Numbered from the stretch's first letter, positions 6,885-31,680 are shown. The stretch is DNA of 32,000 bases from an uncultured Candidatus Saccharibacteria bacterium (GCA_964543385.1 CAZIYE010000001.1:630001-662000); one strand, 5' to 3'. Notes: generated by a model not told the origin, from the sequence alone. A program made the numbers and translations.

Positions 6885-8243
6885 ATGAATAAAACAATAG
6901 TTCCAATTCGGGGGATGCATTGCCGGTCATGTGAGATTTTAATTGAAGAAAAACTCAAGGAATTGCCGGAGATTAAAAGCGTCCAGATAAATTACAAAAA
7001 GAAGCAAGCTATTATTTACTCAAAAGGTGAACTTGATTTAAATACAGTCAAACTATCTATAGAAGAAGCTGGCTATGAAGTTGGCGGCGATGATAGCAAA
7101 AACTGGATTAGTAGGGATCTGACAGTTTATAAGGACATTCTGATTTCCTTAATGATTTTGCTGGGTATATATTTCTGGTTTAGGATTTTGAATATCTCTG
7201 GCTTTGGTGGAGGGAATGTTAGTAATCCATCAAATCTCTTTGTCGTCCTAATGATTGGATTAACTGCAGGTATCTCAACCTGTATGGCTCTAGTTGGTGG
7301 ATTAGTTCTTGGGATCTCAGCTAGGTATTCAGAAAAACATCCCGAAGCTTCGCCAACACAGAAATTTCGGCCTCATATATTCTTCAATATTGGGAGAGTC
7401 GTTTCCTTCTTTATCTTCGGAGGCCTTATTGGCTTGATAGGTAATGTTTTTCAATTAAATGGTCTTGCTTTGGGTATTATGACTATTGCTGTTGGTATTA
7501 TCATGCTAGCCCTCGGTCTGCAATTAACGGAATTGTTCCCAAAATTATCAAACGGAGGGATTACTCTTCCTTCTGGCATTAGTAAATTTCTTGGAATAAA
7601 AAAACACCATGTAAAAGAATACAGTCATTGGAATTCTGCACTTGTTGGTGCATTGACTTTCTTCTTACCATGCGGTTTTACTCAGGCAATGCAGGTCTAT
7701 GCAATCAGTACTGGAAATCTTTGGTCTGGCGCATTGATCATGGCTATTTTCGCTATCGGCACAACTCCGGGATTATTAAGCATAGGAGGACTAACTTCAT
7801 TTATGAAGGGTTCCTTTGCAAAAAAGATCTTCAAATTTGTCGGAGTTGTCGTTGTAATTTTAGCATTGTTTAATATCAACAATGGCTACAATCTAACCGG
7901 TTGGAAAATCGGTTTTAGTGAAAGTAATATTTCTAGCTCTGCAGATCCCAACGTAACAATAGAAAATGGTGTGCAAGTTGTCCGGATGACACAAGTATCA
8001 AACGGTTATAAGCCGAATAAAGTTACAATCCAAAAGGGGATGCCGGTGAAATGGATTATTAAGGCAACTGATCTTAATTCATGCTCTTCTAGTATTTTAG
8101 TTTCAAAACTTAACATTAAGAAATATCTAACAATTGGCGATAATATTTTTGAATTTACACCGAAAGAAACTGGAGAAATTAAGTTCACTTGTGCGATGGG
8201 GATGTACCCTAGTAAATTTATTGTAATTGAGGATGGCAAATGA
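6885..8243 (+). CDS. Heavy-metal-associated (HMA) domain fused to a polytopic membrane domain and a C-terminal cupredoxin-like domain
   Basis: N-terminal GMHCRSC HMA motif. Multiple TM helices with conserved Cys (ISTCMA, LPCGFTQ), resembling DsbD_2/TauE-like proteins. C-terminal beta-rich domain ending FTCAMGMY. The names for the last two domains are from memory. Confidence 0.75.
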
Positions 8244-10585
8244 AAGTAAATATATCTATATCGGGCATGCACTGTGCTTCTTGTGCTTCTCTGATAGAAG
8301 AGGCACTTAAAAAAAATGTTGGAGTTAAGCAAATCATTGTCAACTTTGCGGCCGAAAAGGCCTCCGTTATTTTCGATGATGATCAAACAAATATAGATAA
8401 TATATTAGCTATAATAAAAAAATCTGGATACGACGCCGTGTTAACCAATGAAGGTAATATCAGATCGGACGATAAAAAAAAGCAACAAGAAATTGATAGA
8501 TGGTGGGGAAAGTTTATTTTTGGATTAACTTTTTCTATCCCAATGCTATATTTTATGATTCTTGATTTCTTCCCAGATCTCCCGGGAGGAAATTTATTGC
8601 CTCCATATTTTGGGATTATCTCGCTTATTCTAACCGTTCCTATTCAATTTATTATTGGAGCCGGATTCTATAAGGGCATGTGGTCAAGTCTCAAGATGAG
8701 GACATTTAACATGGACTCATTGATTGCTATTGGTACCTCGACTGCTTTTTTCTATAGTTTGATAAATTTCATACTATATATGATTTACAAAGGCTCAATC
8801 TTGGGCTTAGATGGAACAAAGATTTCAGATCTATATTTTGAGACTGCAGCATTTCTGATTACATTTGTTGTCTTGGGAAAGTGGCTTGAGGCTAAAGCCA
8901 AAGGCAAAACTAGCGATGCAATTAAGAAATTAATGGGTTTGCAAGCTAGAAACGCAAGAGTAATCCGTGATGGCAAGACTCTCAATATTGAAATTGATGA
9001 AGTAATTCACGGAGATATTATTTTGGTCAGACCCGGCGAGAAAGTGCCTGTTGATGGTGTTATTACCAAAGGATTCTCTGCTCTGGATGAATCCATGGTT
9101 ACTGGAGAAAGCTTGCCGGTTGAAAGGCGGGTTGGAGATAAAGTAATAGGTGCTACTCTTAATAAAACTGGTAGTTTTGAATTTGAGGCTACTAAGATCG
9201 GCGCAGAAACTACTTTATCTCAAATTATCCGTTTGATTGAAGAAGCGCAAGGTTCAAAAGCCCCGATTCAAGCCTTTGCTGACAGAATTTCCTCTTGGTT
9301 TGTACCGGTAGTTATTAGTTTGGCAATCATAACTTTAATAGTTTGGTTGCTATTAGGTGCAGGACTTCCTTTTGCTCTGATGGCTTTTACCGCTGTTATT
9401 GTGATTGCTTGTCCTTGTGCACTTGGTCTTGCTACTCCGACTGCAATTATGGTCGGAACAGGTAAAGGCGCAGAGCATGGTATTCTAATAAAGGGCGGTG
9501 AGCCGCTAGAGGCTGCCGAAAAAATTAAGGCAATAGTTTTTGATAAAACAGGCACTCTAACAAATGGTAAGCCTGAGGTTACTAATATCTTATCTTCCTC
9601 TAGTACTGATGAAGACGACATACTCCAAATTTCCGCTTCCTTAGAAAAATCCTCAGAGCATCCTTTGGCTGAAGCTATTTATAGTTATGCCAATGAAGAA
9701 GGAATTAAACTTGATGAAGTTACTGATTTCAAGGCAATCCCCGGTCATGGTGTCGAAGGCAAGATAAATGGTAAAAAATATTTCTTTGGAAACCGAAGAC
9801 TTGCTACAGATGTTGTTGGTCTAGATATTAGTAAGATCAATCGCAAGATGTCAAGAATCGAAGAAGATGGTAAAACTGTAATGATTTTAACCTCTAAAAA
9901 AGAAATCCTAGGTTTGATAGGTGTAGCTGATACAGTCAAAGAGACTTCGAAAGAAGCTGTAGAAAAACTCAAAAAGATGGGTATCGATGTTTGGATGATT
10001 ACCGGTGATAATCAGCGAACTGCTAATGCAATCGCTAAGGAAGTTGGCATTACCAATATTCTTGCTGAAGTGCTTCCTGAGGACAAAGCCAACGAAGTCA
10101 AAAAACTTCAGGAAAGTGGCAAAATTGTGGCAATGGTCGGAGATGGTATTAACGACGCCCCTGCTCTGGCTCAAGCCGATCTTGGTATTGCTATGGGCTC
10201 TGGTACTGATGTAGCCATAGAAGCCGGTGGCATTGTTATTATTAAGAACGATCTAAGAGATGTGGTAAAAGCGATTGAACTTTCCAGAGAAACTATGGGC
10301 AAAGTCCGCCAGAATATGTTTTTTGCTCTTTTTTATAATGTGATTAGTATTCCTATTGCCGCCAGAGTTTTTGTTGACTTGGGTCTTATATTAAAGCCTG
10401 AGCTAGCTGGTTTAGCCATGGCAATGAGCTCAATTTCTGTCGTCTCGAACTCGATATTGCTTAGAGGTTTCAGGCCTCATAAAAAAAACTGGCTCTCCAC
10501 TATTGCTCCAATAATTATGACTTTCGTATTTACTATATTGTTTCTGTGGTTCGCTCGTCTTAGCTCTGAAATGTCAGGAAAATAG
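8240..10585 (+). CDS. copA: Copper-translocating P1B-type ATPase
   Basis: HMA GMHCASC, TGES, CPC ([11 protein letters not shown]), [20 protein letters not shown]. The ATGA overlap with the upstream gene suggests translational coupling. Confidence 0.95.
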
Positions 10586-15650: not shown

Positions 15651-15725
15651 TGGCTCCCTGAGCTGGACTCGAACCAGCAACATCTTCGTTAACAGCGAAG
15701 CGCTCTGCCATTGAGCTATCAGGGA
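15651..15725 (-). tRNA. tRNA-Asn: tRNA-Asn (anticodon GTT) with encoded CCA
   Basis: Hand-folded cloverleaf: acceptor TCCCTGA/TCAGGGA, D stem GCTC/GAGC, anticodon stem CTTCG/CGAAG with loop CTGTTAA, T stem GCTGG/CCAGC with loop TTCGAGT, discriminator G, then CCA. 75 nt. Confidence 0.93.
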
Positions 15726-16652: not shown

Positions 16653-17882
16653 ATGAAAAAAGATCAGACTTTTATGATTATTAAAGAAAGAGTAAATCAG
16701 GTCGGAAATATTTTAAATCTTAGTGATAAAGAGATCAATCTGCTTCTATCTCCCAAGAGGATTGCAAAGGGTAATCTAGTCGTTGAGGGTGAGAAAATCC
16801 CTGCTTGGCGGATTCTATATAATAATGCGCTTGGTCCTGGCAAAGGCGGAATTCGTTTCCATCCTGAGGCCAGTAAAGACGAAGTCGAATCGCTAGCCTT
16901 TTGGATGACTCTGAAGAATTCGCTTGTAGGATTACCATACGGTGGTGCTAAAGGTGGTGTAAGATTCAATCCAAAGGGTAAAAGTAAGGAATACTTAGAG
17001 AAGGTTAGCAGAGCTTATATCGATAAATTTTATCCTTTCTTGGGAGAAAATATTGATATTCCGGCCCCTGATGTTTATACAAATCCCCAGGTAATGGCTT
17101 GGATGCTCGATGAATATGAGAAAAAAGTTGGTCATCATGCGCCTGCCATGATTACGGGAAAGCCAATAGAACTTGGCGGACTTCAACTCCGAGCGGACTC
17201 TACGGCAAAAGGTGGCAAGATAATTTTAGAAGAAGTAATTCATCACGACGGGATTGGGAAGAATCCAACAATTGCTATACAGGGATTTGGAAATGCCGGT
17301 TATAATATTGCAAGGATGCTTGATAGTGATGAATTTAAAATCATTGCTGTAAGTGACAGCAAAGGTGGTATTTATGATAAAAATGGTTTAGACATCAAAC
17401 GGGTTTCTGAAATTAAAATAAAAACAGGTACAGTTACTAGCTATAAGGCGAAAAATATCTCAAACAATGATCTCTTGGAACTTCCTGTTGATATTCTAAT
17501 ATTAGCTGCTTTGGAAAATCAGATTACCAAGGAAAATGCTGGGAGAGTAAAAGCTAAATATATAATAGAGTTAGCAAACGGGCCAGTTGATTTCGAAGGA
17601 GATAAAATTCTGGACGAGAGAGGAATTATCGTTGTTCCGGACATATTGGCAAATGCCGGTGGCGTGATCGTTTCATATTTTGAGTGGGCTCAGAACAAAA
17701 CTGGCAATATCATGGACCATGACTATCTTAGTCAAAAACTATTTTTAACCCTCGAGAGTGCCTGGCATCAAGTTTATGAGCTTTATAAAGATAATGAAGG
17801 CATAGATCTAAGGACCGCGGCATACATTATCGCTATAAAAAGAGTCCTAGAGGCCGAAAGATCAAGAGGCAATTTAAAATAG
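16653..17882 (+). CDS. gdh: Glutamate dehydrogenase (Glu/Leu/Phe/Val dehydrogenase family)
   Basis: GPGKGGIRFHP, GGAKGG and GFGNAG dinucleotide motifs. 409 aa. 8 nt downstream of arsR. Confidence 0.92.
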   Translation: MKKDQTFMIIKERVNQVGNILNLSDKEINLLLSPKRIAKGNLVVEGEKIPAWRILYNNALGPGKGGIRFHPEASKDEVESLAFWMTLKNSLVGLPYGGAKGGVRFNPKGKSKEYLEKVSRAYIDKFYPFLGENIDIPAPDVYTNPQVMAWMLDEYEKKVGHHAPAMITGKPIELGGLQLRADSTAKGGKIILEEVIHHDGIGKNPTIAIQGFGNAGYNIARMLDSDEFKIIAVSDSKGGIYDKNGLDIKRVSEIKIKTGTVTSYKAKNISNNDLLELPVDILILAALENQITKENAGRVKAKYIIELANGPVDFEGDKILDERGIIVVPDILANAGGVIVSYFEWAQNKTGNIMDHDYLSQKLFLTLESAWHQVYELYKDNEGIDLRTAAYIIAIKRVLEAERSRGNLK

Positions 17883-17954
17883 CTGGTAATTGCTAAAAGA
17901 GACAGCGAACTATATAATTGTTGTATAAACATTAGCTTATTGACTTGGAGGGAA

Positions 17955-18830
17955 ATGAAGCCTATTTGGGTTGTTCTAATCACAGTTCTCGCGACTGCTG
18001 TTTTGGTCGGTGGTGGCACTTATTATTTTCTTAATCAAAAATTGGAAAAAGATAAGACTTCTTTACAAAAACAGATAGATGATTTAAAAGAGGTGACTGT
18101 AACTGCAGATACAGCAGATGCTGCTATTGTTGATACTACTTCCGCTCCAGTTGTCGATGTGACAGCTGATTGGAAAAACTTTACAGATAATACTCATTCG
18201 TTGAGTTTTAAATATCCAGCCACATGGGGGATGAAGTCCAGCCAAGATGCTAAGAAAAATGAAGAAGAAATGGTCTATGTCGATCAAAGCATAACAGTAC
18301 TCAGTAATGGAAAAACTGAAGAAAATAGCAATATCGGTTTGACTTATACATATATTACCAATATATCTGACTATGATAAGAACATCGTAGCGCATAACAA
18401 AGACATCGATGAGCTGCTAAGTGTATATAACAATAAAGAAGTTGGTGCTAATACTGCAAAAGAGAATATTTGGTTGCCATCTTCAAATGCGGCTATCATC
18501 GCAACTTCTAGTCCAGAGTATATAGAATCAAAGGACGGTACTTTTCGTGGGATTGTCTATTTCGCCAATATCGGCCAAGGTTTTAGTACGGGTTTGGATT
18601 GTGTAATAGTGATGACAAATGGCAAAAAAATATTCCAATTGCATTCTAGCGGAGGATCTGTAAAATCAGATTATTATAAGGGGATATTCTCTGGCGATGC
18701 AGTAGTCTCTGAGAAGTTAATCCAAGAGTTTTTCACATATATTAAGACACTTACATCAAAGAATGTAGAGGAAACAGTAATAAAAGATTACAACGATATC
18801 TATAAAAATATTGCTCTAAGCTTAAAATAA
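17955..18830 (+). CDS. Hypothetical N-terminally anchored or secreted protein (paralog A)
   Basis: Start set to ATG 17955, with GGAGG at 17947-17951. It has a TM helix, a coiled LQKQIDDLK segment, then ADWKNFTD...SFKYPATW shared with the next gene. Confidence 0.7.
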   Translation: MKPIWVVLITVLATAVLVGGGTYYFLNQKLEKDKTSLQKQIDDLKEVTVTADTADAAIVDTTSAPVVDVTADWKNFTDNTHSLSFKYPATWGMKSSQDAKKNEEEMVYVDQSITVLSNGKTEENSNIGLTYTYITNISDYDKNIVAHNKDIDELLSVYNNKEVGANTAKENIWLPSSNAAIIATSSPEYIESKDGTFRGIVYFANIGQGFSTGLDCVIVMTNGKKIFQLHSSGGSVKSDYYKGIFSGDAVVSEKLIQEFFTYIKTLTSKNVEETVIKDYNDIYKNIALSLK

Positions 18831-19658: not shown

Positions 19659-20078
19659 TTATTTTTCTTTCTCGGTTTCTTCATCTTCTTCTGTTGATTT
19701 TTCAATCTCTTCTTCCTCGATTGCACTGCGGCATATATCGGCGCAGTTACGGCAAACAAGAGCACAGTTTTTCATGTGTTCATCATTAAATAATGTTTTA
19801 CAGGATTCGGCGCAGTCATCACATATAAAAGCACAAATACTGAGGAGATCACCGGCATACTCTGAACCACGAATTACAAAGTTTTCTGCTACGATACATA
19901 TCTCTGCGCAATCCAAGAGCCAAAGAACATGCTCTTTTTTGGCAAAGTCTCCACCTTCGTCCAAGGAGTGCATTACTCCCTCTAAACAACTTTCATGGCA
20001 TTGCGCTAGATTTGCCAGCAAACTCCTATCTTCAGCATCAATTTCCATGTCATTTGCATCCATTTTTTCTTTTTCCAT
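19659..20078 (-). CDS. Cys-rich four-helix-bundle protein (DUF326, YhjQ/Csp3-like putative copper-binding protein) with an acidic C-terminal tail
   Basis: Repeated Cys-spacing pattern (CHESC, CAEIC, CAFICDDCAESC, CALVCRNCADIC). The tail is EEEEIEKSTEEDEETEKEK. Confidence 0.75.
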   Translation of the reverse strand: MEKEKMDANDMEIDAEDRSLLANLAQCHESCLEGVMHSLDEGGDFAKKEHVLWLLDCAEICIVAENFVIRGSEYAGDLLSICAFICDDCAESCKTLFNDEHMKNCALVCRNCADICRSAIEEEEIEKSTEEDEETEKEK

Positions 20079-26440: not shown

Positions 26441-27376
26441 ATGTTTGAATCATTTGTAAAATCTATTATCATGAAATTTATTCCTGAAGGTCATCTTTTT
26501 GATGCGGTTAGTTTTTTTATTTACGATGTTATCAAAATTTCACTCCTGATGATTATTATCATTTTTATTGTCTCCATTGTCCGTACTTATTTACCACCAG
26601 CTAAAATAAAAAAAATTCTCTCGCACAAAAATTCAATTCTCGGTAATATCTCGGCAAGTTTTCTAGGCATCATTACGCCATTTTGTACTTGTTCGGCTAT
26701 TCCACTATTCCTTGGTTTTCTTGAAGCCGGAGTACCATTAGGCGTGACTTTTTCATTTTTAGTTGCCAGCCCGATGATAAATGAGATCGCAATTGTACTA
26801 TTGCTCGGAACTTTTGGCTGGAAGATTGCCCTTATTTATGTAGTTAGCGGACTCCTGATTGCAATTATTTCCGGCTTGATTATCGGCAAAATGAATGTCG
26901 AGAGTCTCATAAACGAAGATTTCGCGACCAGAAAAATTGCCGATCCAGTAGTTTACAAGAGTTTTAAGGACAGAGCTATCTATGGTAATGATTATGCATT
27001 TAGTATTTATAAGAAAGTGTTACCATATCTGCTGATCGGTATTGCTCTCGGTGCTTTTATGCATGGCTATGTGCCGGCAGATTTCTTATCAAAATATATA
27101 GGAGAAGGGAACTGGTTTGCGGTTCCGCTTGCAGTTTTATTTGGAGTACCACTTTACTCAAATGCAGCTGGAGTAATCCCGCTGATTTCTGTACTGACAG
27201 AAAAAGGTGTGGCAATCGGCACAAGTCTTGCCTTTATGATGGCAGTAGTCGGACTTTCGTTGCCAGAGTTCATGATTTTAAAGAGGATAATGAAACCAAA
27301 ACTAATAATTATTTTTGCCGCTACCGTTGCAACCGGAATTATTTTGACCGGATACCTGTTTAATGCAATCATCTAA
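26441..27376 (+). CDS. COG0701-type predicted permease (ArsP-like family)
   Basis: Polytopic membrane protein with the ITPFCTCSAIPLF motif. 12 nt downstream of nrdG. Confidence 0.75.
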   Translation: MFESFVKSIIMKFIPEGHLFDAVSFFIYDVIKISLLMIIIIFIVSIVRTYLPPAKIKKILSHKNSILGNISASFLGIITPFCTCSAIPLFLGFLEAGVPLGVTFSFLVASPMINEIAIVLLLGTFGWKIALIYVVSGLLIAIISGLIIGKMNVESLINEDFATRKIADPVVYKSFKDRAIYGNDYAFSIYKKVLPYLLIGIALGAFMHGYVPADFLSKYIGEGNWFAVPLAVLFGVPLYSNAAGVIPLISVLTEKGVAIGTSLAFMMAVVGLSLPEFMILKRIMKPKLIIIFAATVATGIILTGYLFNAII

Positions 27377-27383
27377 AAAGCGA

Positions 27384-27423
27384 AAAGGACGCGAGAGCCT
27401 ATGAGGGCAGGTTGCGTCCTTTT
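27384..27423. terminator. Bidirectional terminator hairpin at the left edge of the GC-rich island
   Basis: AAAGGACGC (27384-27392) pairs with GCGTCCTTTT (27414-27423). It lies between convergent genes. Confidence 0.7.
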
Positions 27424-27446
27424 GAAGAGGGGGTATCGTACGAGGA

Positions 27447-27791
27447 TTATTGCACGATACAGAAGGGGAGTTTGCCGATGTGAATCAGCCCATCGACCTC
27501 GGGGAGACCGGTGACTTTGTGATTACACCACCAGACATTCGAGATGGAGCTGGCGCTGGAAATCGTGATAGCACCGACTTTTTCCACGATCTCCATCAGG
27601 TCGATTTCGGTCTCCATCGTGAAGATGGGCAGTTCGGTCAGCTTCGGGTTATTCGTGCAGCTGCCGCCGTGTGGGCAGTACACGATCTGGAGTGGCGTGG
27701 TCTCTTCGGCAAAGGTAGCCGATAAACCGGCGAGGGCTTCGCGAAGGGCATCCGCTGTGGGTTTGCCGCTGAGCAGGTATCTTTTCAGCAT
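27447..27791 (-). CDS. Hypothetical Cys/His-containing protein (114 aa) with high GC3
   Basis: AGGAGA RBS. Third codon positions are predominantly G/C in this frame. C39-x-H41-x3-C45, C89-x-H91, H104 and C111. No family recognised. Confidence 0.7.
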   Translation of the reverse strand: MLKRYLLSGKPTADALREALAGLSATFAEETTPLQIVYCPHGGSCTNNPKLTELPIFTMETEIDLMEIVEKVGAITISSASSISNVWWCNHKVTGLPEVDGLIHIGKLPFCIVQ

Positions 27792-27898
27792 AGTTTTCTC
27801 CTATTTCGGCAGTTGCCAAGATTGGCTTAACTGTTTATAACACAATATTATTAAATTGGCTACCATAATCCTTAATGAATAGTCGCCAGGAAGTGAAA

Positions 27899-28231
27899 TC
27901 ACCGCCTGGCGAATGGAACAACATCGAGATCGATTACTTTCCATTGGGCAATCCAGTCATCCTCATCCTCTGCTGGGATTTGGGCCAATGCGAGCCATTC
28001 GCCAAATGGCTTATTGTTTTCGATCCGTCGGAGTAGGCGGTCGAAGTGGACACCCTTGATCTGCCTGACTGAGACATAAAGCTCGATATATCCAAAGCCG
28101 ATATAATAGTTCCAGATTGTTACATTAAATCGGCGCGTGTTACCTTTGGTGGTTTGGACTGTGATTTTGAGCTTTCTCTCAATGGGCGATTTTGGCAAAC
28201 CAAGAGCATTAAGAATTTCTACTTCTCTCAT
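27899..28231 (-). CDS. Hypothetical protein (110 aa), upstream partner of the 114-aa ORF
   Basis: AAGGGGG RBS. Same strand as the 114-aa ORF, with a 107-nt gap to it. No family recognised. Confidence 0.6.
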   Translation of the reverse strand: MREVEILNALGLPKSPIERKLKITVQTTKGNTRRFNVTIWNYYIGFGYIELYVSVRQIKGVHFDRLLRRIENNKPFGEWLALAQIPAEDEDDWIAQWKVIDLDVVPFARR

Positions 28232-28355
28232 GGTAGGCCCCCTTTAGATAGATAGTACATTTAAATATCTTCAATTCATTATGCTTTATCCTAATTTTGC
28301 AATGAGATGGGAGATATGAAATAATTTTAGTGGCATTAAGTTAACAAGGATTCAT

Positions 28356-28802
28356 ATGACAGACAGGAAAATGGGCATCGGTTTAGGAGTGATGATTTTA
28401 AGCGATAGCAAAGTGTTGCTTGGCCAACGTCATATCGATCCCAGTAAGGCGGATTCAGAATTGCATGGCGAAGGAACCTGGACAATGCCAGGAGGCAAAT
28501 TGGAATTCGGCGAAAGCTTTGAAGATGCCTGTATTCGTGAAACCAGTGAAGAAACAGGACTCATAATTAGAAAAGAAGACCTTAAACTGATTAGTCTGAC
28601 CAATGATATTGTTCCGACAGCCCATTTTGTAACAGTAGGCTTCCTCTGCGAAATTTTTGAGGGCACGCCAAAAGTGATGGAGCCAGATGAGATTACTGAT
28701 TGGAACTGGTTTGACCTAAACAACTTGCCTGCAAAAGTTTTCCCACCAAGCCAAAAAGTATTAGATAATTATATCGCTGGCAAGATCTATAGGACTGAAT
28801 AA
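28356..28802 (+). CDS. Nudix hydrolase with a canonical Nudix box
   Basis: GGKLEFGESFEDACIRETSEETGL matches GX5EX7REUXEEXGU exactly. AAGGA RBS. Confidence 0.9.
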   Translation: MTDRKMGIGLGVMILSDSKVLLGQRHIDPSKADSELHGEGTWTMPGGKLEFGESFEDACIRETSEETGLIIRKEDLKLISLTNDIVPTAHFVTVGFLCEIFEGTPKVMEPDEITDWNWFDLNNLPAKVFPPSQKVLDNYIAGKIYRTE

Positions 28803-28810
28803 AAATAAAA

Positions 28811-28842
28811 GACCGGATCACACTGCAAGAGTGTGTCCGGTC
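28811..28842. terminator. Hairpin between the convergent Nudix gene and the acidic ORF
   Basis: GACCGGATCACAC pairs with GTGTGTCCGGTC, with one bulged base. Confidence 0.6.
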
Positions 28843-28908
28843 ATAAGTAGTCCATTGGGCATTCGCCCAGATGAGAGTCGGTAACTGATTGACATGAGTC
28901 AATCTTGA

Positions 28909-29142
28909 TTAGACGTTTGCGGCCTCGTCGCTGTAGAGCTCCTCGAGACGGCGGACACGCTGCGCTTCGCGTTCGATTTGATCGAGACGGATGAACTCAA
29001 GCCAAGCACGGTCTTCGGCTTCGGTCATTGGTTCGTCGAATTCGTATTTATCGTCTTTCGCCGGAAAGTCGATAAATACGTCGAAGTCAGAGAACCCAGG
29101 GGTGTCACTGTCATTTCCGAATCCATAACCATCGTATTGCAT
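28909..29142 (-). CDS. Hypothetical highly acidic small protein (77 aa)
   Basis: AAGGAG RBS 6 nt upstream. C-ending codons dominate. 22 D/E against 8 K/R, counted by hand. Confidence 0.65.
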   Translation of the reverse strand: MQYDGYGFGNDSDTPGFSDFDVFIDFPAKDDKYEFDEPMTEAEDRAWLEFIRLDQIEREAQRVRRLEELYSDEAANV

Positions 29143-29261
29143 GAGGGTCTCCTTACGGGATTTGGTATGATAAAATTACACTAAAGTGTAGAAAATAGCA
29201 ATAAATTAGGGGCATTATGGAAAATAATATAGATAAGGCAAAAGATTATTTCTTTTAAACG

Positions 29262-29774
29262 ATGGAAGAAGCCAAGGATGATCCGTGGCATTTGGTTGGT
29301 CATGTTCCCGAAGCAGTTAAGTGGACAGAGAAAATTATTTCCAAATATCCCGCAGCCGATAGGGAAGTTGCTTTAATTTCTGTTTGGCTTCACGATTCAG
29401 CTCATTATGAAGGCGATTGGGAAGTTGATCATGCAGTCAAAAGCGAAAATAAGGCAAGAAAATTTCTTCAAGAATTAGGTCCAACTAAAGATAAAATAGA
29501 TAAGATATGTCACTGCATCCGAGCACATCGCTGCAGGGATGTTTTGCCGCAAACCATTGAGGCAAAAATAGTGGCTTGTGCTGATTCGGCTAGCCATATG
29601 ACAGATATTCTCTATATAGATATGATAAAGAACGACAAGACACAATACGCACTCGAGAAATTAGAACGTGATTACCGTGATCTTTCCGCTTTTCCTGACG
29701 TAAAAAATAACCTCGCTCCTGTTTATGAAGCCTGGAAAAGATTAATAATAAGTCTGGCTGATATCAATATCTAA
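29262..29774 (+). CDS. HD-domain metal-dependent phosphohydrolase, 5' end possibly disrupted
   Basis: H...LHD...H...D pattern (GHVPEAV, WLHDSAHY, IRAH, CADSASH). ATG 29262 has no SD. An in-frame 13-codon ORF with an RBS (29217-29258) ends at TAA one codon upstream. Confidence 0.8.
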   Translation: MEEAKDDPWHLVGHVPEAVKWTEKIISKYPAADREVALISVWLHDSAHYEGDWEVDHAVKSENKARKFLQELGPTKDKIDKICHCIRAHRCRDVLPQTIEAKIVACADSASHMTDILYIDMIKNDKTQYALEKLERDYRDLSAFPDVKNNLAPVYEAWKRLIISLADINI

Positions 29775-29793
29775 GAATTTTTGTTGGGGGGAT

Positions 29794-29823
29794 GCCAACC
29801 CAACGGATTACCGGAGGGTTGGC
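29794..29823. terminator. GC-rich hairpin between convergent genes
   Basis: GCCAACCC (29794-29801) pairs with GGGTTGGC (29816-29823). Confidence 0.5.
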
Positions 29824-29831
29824 GTGCGTGC

Positions 29832-30170
29832 TTAGCGCCATGTGAGAATGCTGCTTGATAACTCGCGGTATGATTGTGCAGTGGTGTTTGTCGGTCTACC
29901 GCAGGTTATCACGATCTTTCCTTTGAAGGACTTAAAGATCGCAGTAATCGCTGCCGTGGCGGCAGGGTTGTCGCCAATCTCGCAGAGATGGGCGTTGAGG
30001 ATGATGCGGTCGATCTGCTCATGATTCTCCTCGAGCAGATATAGCGCATCGATTGGGGAGGTGGCAGGCATCAATTCCATGTTATTGCCTTGAATGCTCC
30101 GGTCGTCTCTGATTTCTGATTCATATTCCAGAACCAGAATGGCTTTGTTAGCTTTATTCTTTTCATTCAT
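29832..30170 (-). CDS. Hypothetical stand-alone receiver-like (pseudo-receiver) protein
   Basis: ILVLEYESEIR...ATSPIDALYLLEE...IDRIILNAHL resembles a CheY-like REC domain. The acidic pair reads EY and the phospho-acceptor position appears to be Asn. The assignment is by eye only. Confidence 0.45.
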   Translation of the reverse strand: MNEKNKANKAILVLEYESEIRDDRSIQGNNMELMPATSPIDALYLLEENHEQIDRIILNAHLCEIGDNPAATAAITAIFKSFKGKIVITCGRPTNTTAQSYRELSSSILTWR

Positions 30171-30363
30171 CAGATGGGGGTTCCTTTCAAATGTGATTCT
30201 GCTAACTAGTCGTAGTTTATAAAATCAGATCGATTCAGAGTAGGTAGAAAAACACAAAAATATAGCCAATTTAGTAATTTTTTGTAATTTTTCATAAAAT
30301 AAATATTTTATCGTAATCTCAGTCATTTTTGATCGGTTCTTACTTTTAGGATAGTATTATTAC

Positions 30364-30930
30364 ATGACTTACAAAACACATAAAACGGTAGCGCTTTTGG
30401 CATCATCGGTGTTATTTATCCATGTACATAAAATTGAACTAACTGTCCCAATGATTCTATTGCTAGCTATAATAACGGTCTTGGGATCTAGCGTCCCAGA
30501 TCTAGATACGCCATCTGGCAAAGTTTGGAGTAAAATTCCAGCGGGATCTCTTATCGGCCGCATAATAAACCCTATCTTTATAGGTGGGCATCGTCATCTT
30601 TCTCACTCAATATTGGGTTTTGGCATTTTTATTGCTCTGTTTGGCCTATTAATAAAACTATTACCTCAATATCCTATGCTTAGTAATCTACACTCCGCTG
30701 ATTTAATGCTAGCTTTTTCGGCTGGCTATCTTTCTCATATATTTGCTGACTTGTTTACTGAAGCTGGCGTACCTCTACTCTTTCCAATGGGTTATCACTT
30801 TGGTATTCCACCGGATCCTTTTAAAAGAGTTAGAATAAAAACAGGCAGGTGGTTTGAAAACTTAGTTATTTATCCTGCTGTAAATATTGCATTGATTGTG
30901 ATAATTTATGACTATCTTAAAAATAGGTAG
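30364..30930 (+). CDS. YdjM/DUF457-family membrane-bound metal-dependent hydrolase
   Basis: HKTVALL, PDLDTPSG, HRHLSHS and SHIFADLFT motifs, with TM helices. Confidence 0.75.
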   Translation: MTYKTHKTVALLASSVLFIHVHKIELTVPMILLLAIITVLGSSVPDLDTPSGKVWSKIPAGSLIGRIINPIFIGGHRHLSHSILGFGIFIALFGLLIKLLPQYPMLSNLHSADLMLAFSAGYLSHIFADLFTEAGVPLLFPMGYHFGIPPDPFKRVRIKTGRWFENLVIYPAVNIALIVIIYDYLKNR

Positions 30931-30936
30931 GTAAAT

Positions 30937-31680
30937 ATGATTTGGCTATATTCAATTGTTAGCGTTTGTATTGTTTCTTCCGTTTCTCTGATAGGGATTT
31001 TTGCATTAGTCTTAAACCAAAAATTTTTAAATAAAATACTACTTTTTTTGGTTGCTTTCTCTGCAGGAGGCTTACTTGGAGACGCCTTTATTCATCTTTT
31101 GCCAGAGAGTATAGAGAAAAGTGGTCTAAACCTTTTTGTTGCCCTATCGGTTCTCTCCGGTATTATCATCTTCTTCATACTAGAAAAATTTTTGCGTTGG
31201 CGGCATTGTCATGATGTGAGCTGTAATGGCCATGCGCATCATCTTGGTACTATCAATCTTATTAGTGACGGGGTGCACAATTTTATTGATGGTTTATTGA
31301 TAGGGGCAAGCTTTATGGTTTCAATTCCGCTTGGCGTTACTACAACTCTAGCTGTGGTTTTGCATGAAATACCACAGGAACTTGGTAATTTTAGCGTGTT
31401 ATTGCATTCAGGCTATACCATAAAGAAGGCACTATTTTACAATTTTGTTTCGGCACTTACTGCTATTGTTGGTGTTGTCATTGTTCTTCTGGTAGGGGAA
31501 AGAGTGATGGCATTTAGCGATTTTATGATTCCTTTCACAGTCGGTACATTTATGTATATCTCCCTTTCGGATCTTATTCCTGAATTGCACAAGGAGATGG
31601 GGCGGAAGAAGTCGCTTTTGCAATTAGCGTCATTCGTTTTAGGTATCGGGTTGATGGCGGCTCTCTTGCTCAACGAATAG
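30937..31680 (+). CDS. zupT: ZIP-family divalent metal (zinc) transporter
   Basis: HNFIDGL and HEIPQELGNF signature helices, plus a His-rich loop (HCHDVSCNGHAHH). Confidence 0.88.
   Translation: MIWLYSIVSVCIVSSVSLIGIFALVLNQKFLNKILLFLVAFSAGGLLGDAFIHLLPESIEKSGLNLFVALSVLSGIIIFFILEKFLRWRHCHDVSCNGHAHHLGTINLISDGVHNFIDGLLIGASFMVSIPLGVTTTLAVVLHEIPQELGNFSVLLHSGYTIKKALFYNFVSALTAIVGVVIVLLVGERVMAFSDFMIPFTVGTFMYISLSDLIPELHKEMGRKKSLLQLASFVLGIGLMAALLLNE

Follow-up and report, generated by a model that had tools for sequence, protein, structure and literature searches.

A GC-rich pocket beside nrdDG in a Patescibacteria-type genome, probably a mosaic of old resident genes and strain-specific orphans

The 32,000-nt stretch CAZIYE010000001.1:630001-662000 of assembly GCA_964543385.1 (uncultured Candidatus Saccharibacteria bacterium), referred to here at its full length as the window, comes from an ultra-small, small-genome bacterium of Patescibacteria type (CPR, the candidate phyla radiation) and contains at 27426-30190 a block of six small genes with a raised content of guanine plus cytosine (GC). 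The block is composed of four small minus-strand open reading frames (ORFs) rich in GC at the third codon position (GC3), designated ORF1, ORF2, ORF4, and ORF6, interleaved with two compositionally native plus-strand genes, which encode a Nudix hydrolase and an HD-domain phosphohydrolase. With a probability of about 0.6, it can be considered a mosaic located in a gene-turnover pocket beside nrdDG, in which long-resident genes stand together with two strain-specific orphans, ORF1 and ORF4. Comparison with related loci indicates that ORF2, ORF6, and the HD gene are old residents, and a remnant in one of these loci would make the Nudix gene a fourth; such residence contradicts a single recent import. 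An earlier reading of the same DNA, made from its sequence only, had proposed one foreign six-gene island, possibly a defence, anti-defence, or nucleotide-signal-turnover module. The six ORFs it named were all found where it had placed them, and the region is indeed accessory and variable, but it does not behave as a single six-gene unit.

Composition and ancestry of the pocket genes

The mean GC content of the window is 38.3%, with 44.7% in the block versus 37.7% in the remainder. Among all stretches of 2765 nt the block has the highest GC content, those outside it having a mean of 37.6%, a standard deviation of 1.2%, and a maximum of 41.6%, and in tetranucleotides, too, the block is the stretch most distant from the remainder of the window. 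Of the profiles suggested as a check in the sequence-only reading, those of GC and tetranucleotides do set the block apart. The G+C counts of 60-nt lines made by hand in that reading proved exact throughout (32/60 at 27481, 32/60 at 27541, 39/60 at 28921, and 16/60 at 26461), and the line at 30241, described as very AT-rich but left uncounted, contains 11/60.

At the level of single genes the picture is patchy. The 24 genes outside the block have a GC3 of 0.340 ± 0.026, with a maximum of 0.382, and the excess is confined to the four small minus-strand genes, ORF1 (0.713), ORF2 (0.495), ORF4 (0.577), and ORF6 (0.584), the plus-strand Nudix gene being nearly host-like (0.409) and the plus-strand HD gene host-like (0.322). 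The third-position surplus of the four small genes is mainly C (0.31-0.46 versus 0.17 in the backbone). As four deviating genes are mixed with two native ones, the supposed island is an interleaved mix whose compositional departure does not extend across the whole block: the earlier claim of atypical composition stands for the block taken together, but for only four of its six genes. Those four do look, as had been proposed, like real genes with a codon usage unlike that of the host. A general effect of strand or of small gene size on GC3 was considered and rejected, since GC3 is ordinary in the window's remaining genes that are small or lie on the minus strand.

The surroundings of the block are conserved among relatives. 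A common backbone, guanylate kinase/Big_7, nrdD, nrdG, the pocket, then ydjM, CYTH, or ZIP, followed by RRM, CsoR, ferredoxin, and YkuD, was seen in the window's own genome and in the contig families L085, L087, and L089, with shorter pieces of it in L004 and L007. In the window, nrdD-nrdG is followed by a gene for an ArsP-type permease, and CsoR lies just past the window end, as read in the overlapping contig L001. The content of the pocket is different in every lineage. L007, the nearest relative, has the order permease, ORF2 homologue (79% identity), ORF6 homologue (50%), ydjM, and lacks ORF1, the Nudix gene, ORF4, and the HD gene. In L004 nrdG is accompanied by an ORF2 homologue (57%), an HD gene (HD187, 45% identical to that of the window), a second HD gene, and two GC-rich small ORFs. 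L087 carries nrdG-DUF559-HD182, a 50-aa ORF, an ORF2 homologue, HD379, and an 89-aa relative of ORF6, and L089 carries nrdG, HD184, an ORF2 homologue, four more small co-oriented ORFs, and a 22-aa Nudix remnant. The L085 pocket contains DUF559 and five small co-oriented ORFs, including an ORF2 homologue (36%) and a gene for a receiver-like protein, and that of L086 contains a GIY-YIG gene, an ORF2 homologue, and two receiver-like ORFs. In all, six other contig families have an ORF2 homologue at this locus. The six genes occur together in no related locus, and the only recurring set is ORF2 with a receiver-like gene, often together with HD. The co-occurrence survey suggested earlier did not yield the adjacency of permease and ydjM that was expected where the island is absent, as L007 keeps the ORF2 and ORF6 homologues between them.

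What L007 lacks are two sub-segments with approximate boundaries. One of them, at about 27385-27875 and about 55% GC, contains ORF1 with an AT-rich promoter-like leader, a Shine-Dalgarno (SD) sequence, and a terminator; when the window (27340-28380) and L007 (2880-1780) are read side by side, only 26 nt separate the permease stop from the stop of the ORF2 homologue in L007. The other, at about 28318-29788, contains the Nudix gene, ORF4, and the HD gene, and at this point the L007 sequence runs from ...ttaagatg straight into gatgccaacccaacgg, the ORF6 terminator.

The genes common to both loci have apparently descended together. Between the window and L007 the synonymous divergence (dS) is 0.89 for ORF2 and 1.16 for ORF6, with ratios of nonsynonymous to synonymous divergence (dN/dS) of 0.13 and 0.32, respectively. 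For the flanking genes, dS and dN/dS are 1.24 and 0.051 (nrdG), 0.77 and 0.034 (permease), 1.82 and 0.107 (ydjM), and 1.99 and 0.041 (ZIP). The dS values of ORF2 and ORF6 fall within the flanking range of 0.77-2.0, which argues for vertical descent; both are real genes under purifying selection, and their divergence has lasted about as long as that of the genes beside them.

In the history proposed here, an older, vertically inherited layer would comprise the YedJ-like HD gene, the MutT/NUDX1-like Nudix gene, the ORF2 family, and the pseudo-receiver ORF6, and a younger layer would comprise ORF1 and ORF4, self-contained single-gene units, each with its own SD sequence and hairpin, lying on the two segments absent from L007. 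From what is known of their families, the HD and Nudix enzymes may trim or sanitise the (deoxy)nucleotide pool of the class III reductase, and the pseudo-receiver and ORF2 proteins may be accessory factors, transcribed separately, that work by contacting other proteins or nucleic acids. The six genes would form no single machine. They alternate in orientation, and each is bounded by a hairpin or an intergenic gap, which argues against a six-gene operon.

The six genes and their products

Only the Nudix and HD proteins have matches in Pfam, and both are ordinary superfamily members; the presence of two nucleotide hydrolases, claimed earlier, is thereby borne out. The Nudix gene (28356-28802, plus strand) encodes a 148-aa protein of the MutT/NUDX1 type that matches Pfam NUDIX (PF00293) with E = 1.6e-21 and 77.1 bits, at a cut-off of 21.1. 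Its translation contains a complete Nudix box, G46-KLEFG-E-SFEDACI-RETSEETGL (pattern GX5EX7REUXEEXGU), and the solved structures closest to it are those of plant NUDX1 and of MutT-type enzymes, similar over the full length at E = 1e-21. As it scores under every NCBIfam equivalog cut-off (44.9 bits versus 148 for NF008044, 43 versus 97.9 for TIGR00586), it cannot be called MutT itself: it is like the MutT/NUDX1-type hydrolases in its box and full-length similarity but unlike them in falling below the equivalog cut-offs. In L089, at 8646-8711 on the minus strand, a 22-aa stretch located between two small ORFs is 68% identical to the C-terminus of the Nudix protein and is apparently the relic of a Nudix gene that has decayed in the orthologous pocket.

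The HD gene (29262-29774, plus strand) encodes a compositionally native, YedJ-like phosphohydrolase of 170 aa, which matches Pfam HD with E = 3.3e-8 and 34.2 bits, over the curated cut-off of 22. The metal-ligand motif H...HD...D is present in the translation as H14, H44-D45, and D108. With its nearest solved relatives, PDB 2pq7 (E = 4.5e-4) and YedJ (3gw7), it shares the HD domain, these ligands, and a similar size; it differs in that the similarity is remote, YedJ is itself uncharacterised, and the HD family of this pocket is tied to nrdDG in relatives. Its homologues there are HD182 of L087 (E = 5e-55), HD187 of L004 (E = 1e-47), and HD184 of L089 (E = 1e-47). HD184 begins 1 nt after nrdG, and in L087 the order is nrdG-DUF559-HD, so that in the relatives this family is part of the nrdDG operon or lies directly after it. 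The HD protein also matches the phage family phrog_3921, of no known function, with E = 2e-10. A 12-mer, TTAGKGGCATTA, is present in only two copies in the window, at 28327-28338 and 29206-29217, just upstream of the Nudix and HD starts. It was rejected as a common operator of the two genes because 7 of 100 shuffles reach two copies and it is not conserved upstream of the HD homologues in relatives; the pairing is probably due to chance. Between the convergent Nudix and ORF4 genes, at 28811-28842, lies a hairpin, GACCGGATCACACT-gcaag-AGTGTGTCCGGTC.

ORF2 (27899-28231, minus strand, 110 aa) is the founding member of a small, clade-restricted, β-rich family. Three close homologues share 84, 79, and 57% identity with it, and a profile search of 1.84 billion cluster representatives yielded five credible relatives, so that the family, undescribed and absent from Pfam, is tiny, with about eight known members. 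A 501-aa repeat protein, P0018, that matched the ORF2 profile with E = 2e-4 was discarded, on its sequence, as a low-complexity artefact, and s116 of L085 was rejected as a paralogue (probability 0.2%). The AlphaFold model of ORF2 (predicted confidence, pLDDT, 78.5) consists of a helix and, after it, six strands; Foldseek searches with it against PDB and BFVD gave no convincing match (best TM < 0.55, E ≥ 0.01), nor did the profile match any PDB sequence, and the predicted product is accordingly β-rich and matches no known fold. No conserved RNA structure was found within ORF2 in a seven-sequence alignment (consensus -6.8 kcal/mol, covariation term -0.28). A hairpin with an inverted repeat overlaps the 3' end of the gene (27883-27912), and L007 shares its GCCAGG...CCTGGC stem. 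The stretch between ORF2 and the Nudix gene (28232-28355), a putative divergent promoter region, has promoter-like matches at 28296-28325, and its ORF2-proximal half is kept in L007, with ATAGTACATNTAAATAT...TTCATTATGC in common.

ORF6 (29832-30170, minus strand, 112 aa) is best called a pseudo-receiver, that is, a protein with a receiver-like α/β pattern and, judging from the alignment, without the canonical phosphorylation position. Besides its L007 homologue, which adjoins ydjM, it has a relative of 89 aa (s89) in L087 with E = 8e-9. A profile built from eight proteins, ORF6 and seven similar small ones from related loci, matches the receiver protein 3jte with E = 1.2e-5. The acceptor Asp of 3jte pairs with Asn59 of ORF6 (IILNAH), the homologues carrying N, Y, W, or S at this place, and the family does not keep the acidic pair that follows β1, having LEYESE or GFDSEL in place of DD. 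Neither ORF6 nor any of its relatives matches Pfam Response_reg (PF00072). The AlphaFold model (pLDDT 64) consists of four β-α units and a disordered tail, and its top Foldseek matches are receiver domains and the pseudo-receiver at the N-terminus of KaiA, at TM of about 0.5 and a best E of 0.014. The protein is thus like KaiA-N and the CheY-like receivers in its alternating β-α pattern, profile match, and structural similarity, and unlike them in the Asn that replaces the acceptor Asp, the unconserved acidic pair, the number of predicted units (four), and in having neither a Response_reg match nor an adjacent histidine kinase or output domain. The receiver-like character noted in the sequence-only reading is upheld, though the acceptor Asp is missing, and since it would not be phosphorylated at the canonical site, the protein would act by binding partners. 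Its terminator hairpin, an inverted repeat at 29794-29823, has a near-identical counterpart downstream of the L007 homologue.

The remaining two genes are orphans. ORF1 (27447-27791, minus strand) would encode a protein of 114 aa with four Cys and three His residues; its GC content differs by codon position (p = 5e-5), and AGGAG stands 7 nt ahead of the ATG. No relatives were found in a collection of 5.8 billion proteins, the fetched loci, viral contigs, plasmids, phages, or PDB, and ORF1 was rejected as a further pseudo-receiver (hhalign probability 0.2%). ORF4 (28909-29142, minus strand) would encode a very acidic protein of 77 aa; GC by codon position is 0.65/0.32/0.58 (p = 7e-5), and AAGGAG stands 7 nt ahead of the ATG. 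It forms a singleton cluster and has no relatives in the fetched loci, viral contigs, phages, or plasmids. A phage or plasmid origin found no support when ORF1, ORF4, and the ORF2 family were compared with viral contigs, and ORF1 and ORF4 also with phages and plasmids. None of the four minus-strand ORFs has a match in Pfam, PHROGs, NCBIfam, or PADLOC. As far as their sequences indicate, ORF1 and ORF4 are probable, as yet unconfirmed, genes.

Explanations of the GC excess

In the preferred reading, the GC excess would have come from the repeated arrival of small genes from GC-richer pools, followed by slow amelioration. Small co-oriented pocket genes are GC3-rich over their own backbone in most of the related lineages: the richest reach 0.67 (s100) and 0.65 (s128) in L089 at a backbone value of 0.38, 0.69 (s50) versus 0.37 in L087, 0.65-0.66 versus 0.46 in L004, 0.75 (s133) versus 0.28 for the single backbone gene of L086, and 0.72 (s118) versus 0.49 in L085. 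No excess is present in s116 of L085 or in either L007 homologue (0.35 for that of ORF2), and s67 of L089 is marginal. Averaged from the gene tables, the excess over the backbone is about +0.07 for the conserved ORF2 family, +0.17 for the rapidly evolving pseudo-receivers, and +0.20 for the orphans, a gradient that fits import and subsequent amelioration. Several points weigh against this reading. The excess recurs in the orthologous pocket of L004, L085 (most small genes), L086, L087, and L089, although synonymous sites are saturated between most of these lineages, so that old imports should have ameliorated by now. In ORF2 and ORF6 taken together, third positions with G/C in the window and A/T in L007 number 33 and the reverse 10, as against 101 and 173 in four flanking genes (Fisher p = 1.4e-6), a reversed direction suggestive of a force specific to these genes and not of passive decay. 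A donor lineage was identified for none of the small genes, the coding status of ORF1 and ORF4 is indicated by codon periodicity and SD sequences only, and the comparison covers seven related contig families, several of them short.

The same recurrence and the same reversed synonymous direction would be explained if a persistent local force kept native small genes rich in C and G at synonymous sites, for example selection acting on their codon usage or on the stability of their mRNA, or gene conversion biased towards GC in a pocket prone to recombination; the composition would then be maintained and would not be a trace of import. Consistent with such a force, 25 small ORFs fold more stably than their dinucleotide shuffles (mean z -1.9 versus -0.3 for 21 controls, Mann-Whitney p = 2e-4), ORF6 (29832-30170) reaching z -4.5, and the DUF559 or GIY-YIG endonucleases of the L085, L086, and L087 pockets could drive repeated break repair. 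However, the HD genes of the pocket, with a GC3 of 0.28-0.32, exceed the backbone in AT, which speaks against a regional conversion bias, the L007 homologue of ORF2 has no excess, the ORF2 alignment contains no conserved RNA structure, the fold z-scores may reflect compositional heterogeneity within genes, and the remaining small or minus-strand genes of the window are unaffected; this explanation, the chief rival where composition is concerned, is considered rather unlikely. A related and decidedly doubtful proposal is that the ORF2-family protein, the pseudo-receiver(s), and the nrdDG-linked HD protein form an undescribed Patescibacteria-specific module sensing or regulating the nucleotide pool, with its small genes held C/G-rich by an active force. 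It is also improbable that ORF1, ORF4, or both are spurious ORFs in non-coding DNA, either a structured RNA or a decayed remnant. Stop-poor, GC-rich DNA in an AT-rich genome does yield long spurious ORFs, and the ORF1 patch (27450-27840) contains overlapping plus-strand ORFs of 91 and 98 aa and an ORF of 56 aa in another frame; at this place the gene caller used on SRR12261224 chose an 81-aa plus-strand gene (window 27480-27725), and the ORF1 region with its flanks folds at z -4.1 on the minus strand. The missing homologues of both ORFs would fit as well. Their marked three-base GC periodicity in the annotated frames and the canonical SD sequences before both start codons point the other way, and the coding part of ORF1 alone folds at z -2.0 and ORF4 at z -0.6. 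In Rfam searches, the window matched a single tRNA at gathering scores, and nothing was matched in 27300-30400 even at E ≤ 1.

The single horizontally acquired six-gene module envisaged in the sequence-only reading is very unlikely. It could account for the highest GC content and tetranucleotide distance in the window and for two nucleotide hydrolases standing side by side with a receiver-like protein, and the HD match to phrog_3921 and a match of the Nudix protein to the PADLOC single-gene candidate PDC-S07 (E = 4.9e-13) might be cited for it. The latter, however, is of the size expected of generic Nudix similarity, and against the PADLOC-DB defence models the other five proteins gave no hit and no conserved set was found across the related loci, and a defence system is accordingly rejected. 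An acquired unit is further contradicted by the native composition of the HD and Nudix genes, by the long residence of ORF2, ORF6, and HD, whose homologues occupy the same locus, with host-like dS, by the alternating orientation, and by the failure of the six genes to occur together elsewhere, an outcome that the sequence-only reading had itself named as refuting a system. As to marks of mobility, there is no integrase or transposase among the six genes and there are no flanking direct repeats, and the sole tRNA gene of the window is at 15651-15725. The abrupt steps of composition at 27430 and 30180 could also have arisen had a chimeric metagenomic assembly inserted DNA of a GC-richer organism into the contig, a mis-join that had been raised earlier as an alternative. 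This is extremely improbable. Three other assemblies (SRR12261224, SRR12261226, and JGI 3300045131) are 100% identical to the window and each encode the exact ORF2 protein; the contigs of the first two (L001 and L002) cover both junctions and that of the third (L003) the left one, and the identity of independent assemblies from different samples across the junctions excludes a chimera. Moreover, five of the six proteins are also on record from a 671-kb contig, host-like genes alternate with GC-rich ones inside the block, and in relatives ORF2 and ORF6 have the same genes on either side.

Related kinds of locus and further observations

Among known kinds of locus, the pocket comes closest to an accessory islet set between core genes that are conserved. 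With such genomic islets, or gene-turnover hotspots, the pocket shares fixed flanks, a content that varies with the lineage, small unknown genes, atypical composition, and insertions or deletions; it is unlike them in having no integrase, tRNA gene, or flanking repeats, in that the ORF2 family, the pseudo-receiver, and the HD family are as old as the clade, and in that the compositional excess affects only small genes lying in the same orientation and reappears from lineage to lineage. Integron cassette arrays and integrase-less attC clusters resemble the pocket in their co-oriented small unknown ORFs that differ between relatives at a fixed site. They differ from it in that the pocket has no integrase and no repeated attC-like imperfect palindromes after its ORFs, and native genes of the opposite strand are interleaved. 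Integron cassettes were rejected because the hairpins are short and unrelated and form no shared attC-like family, as judged from a repeat scan and not from a dedicated attC model. Horizontal transfer and genomic islands are reported to be common in Patescibacteria (PMC12455944). A clearly foreign gene in a relative, the FabH-like (ACP_syn_III) gene of L089 at 17245-18231, with 60% GC and a GC3 of 0.69 where the genes of the contig average about 0.38, shows that GC-rich donors have contributed genes to this clade.

An abrupt change of GC content within a metagenome-assembled genome is not necessarily the sign of one foreign island or system; in this case it breaks down into four small genes, differing in age, amid native enzymes. 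Two small clade-restricted families absent from Pfam, the ORF2 family and the pseudo-receiver family, come to light in this way, together with co-oriented small genes that stay GC3-rich in one syntenic pocket of several AT-rich, reduced-genome lineages, which would bear on the evolution of base composition if a force maintains them. On present evidence neither the families nor the recurrence of high GC3 changes current understanding.

The permease and ORF1 genes are convergent, and between them, at 27383-27423, lies a bidirectional terminator hairpin, AAAAGGACGC...GCGTCCTTTT, a perfect 10-bp inverted repeat with a loop of 21 nt whose arms are 27383-27392 and 27414-27423; the permease terminator recognised earlier is thereby confirmed. 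A search for loci based on the permease returned 76 of them, mostly from distant lineages with unrelated neighbours, and the one close locus, L024, ends inside the permease. Relatives of the ArsP-type permease with about 40-65% identity (L021-L083) come from a wide variety of lineages, among them Melainabacteria, Cloacimonadota, further candidate phyla, and archaea that are methanogenic, and the gene is absent from the interval between nrdG and ORF2 in L004, L085, L087, and L089; its distribution suggests that the permease gene itself has been widely exchanged.

The DUF559 (Vsr-like) or GIY-YIG genes of the relatives, at L085:11073-11393, L087:9114-9479, and L086:1883-2107, adjoin nrdG or ORF2 homologues, and none is present in the window. 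Possibly these are homing-type endonucleases of the free-standing sort, which would make the pocket prone to recombination. L090, a contig representing a variant of the L089 lineage, has at the nrdG position not the 235-aa radical-SAM activase but a gene of 159 aa without a Pfam match (1287-1766), which could be a truncation or a frameshift.

It is also worth noting that genes for metal handling are abundant in the window, at 6885-10585, 19659-20078, 26441-27376, and 30937-31680; the set comprises an HMA/DsbD/cupredoxin protein, a copper-type P-type ATPase, the copper storage protein Csp, the ArsP-type permease, and a ZIP transporter.

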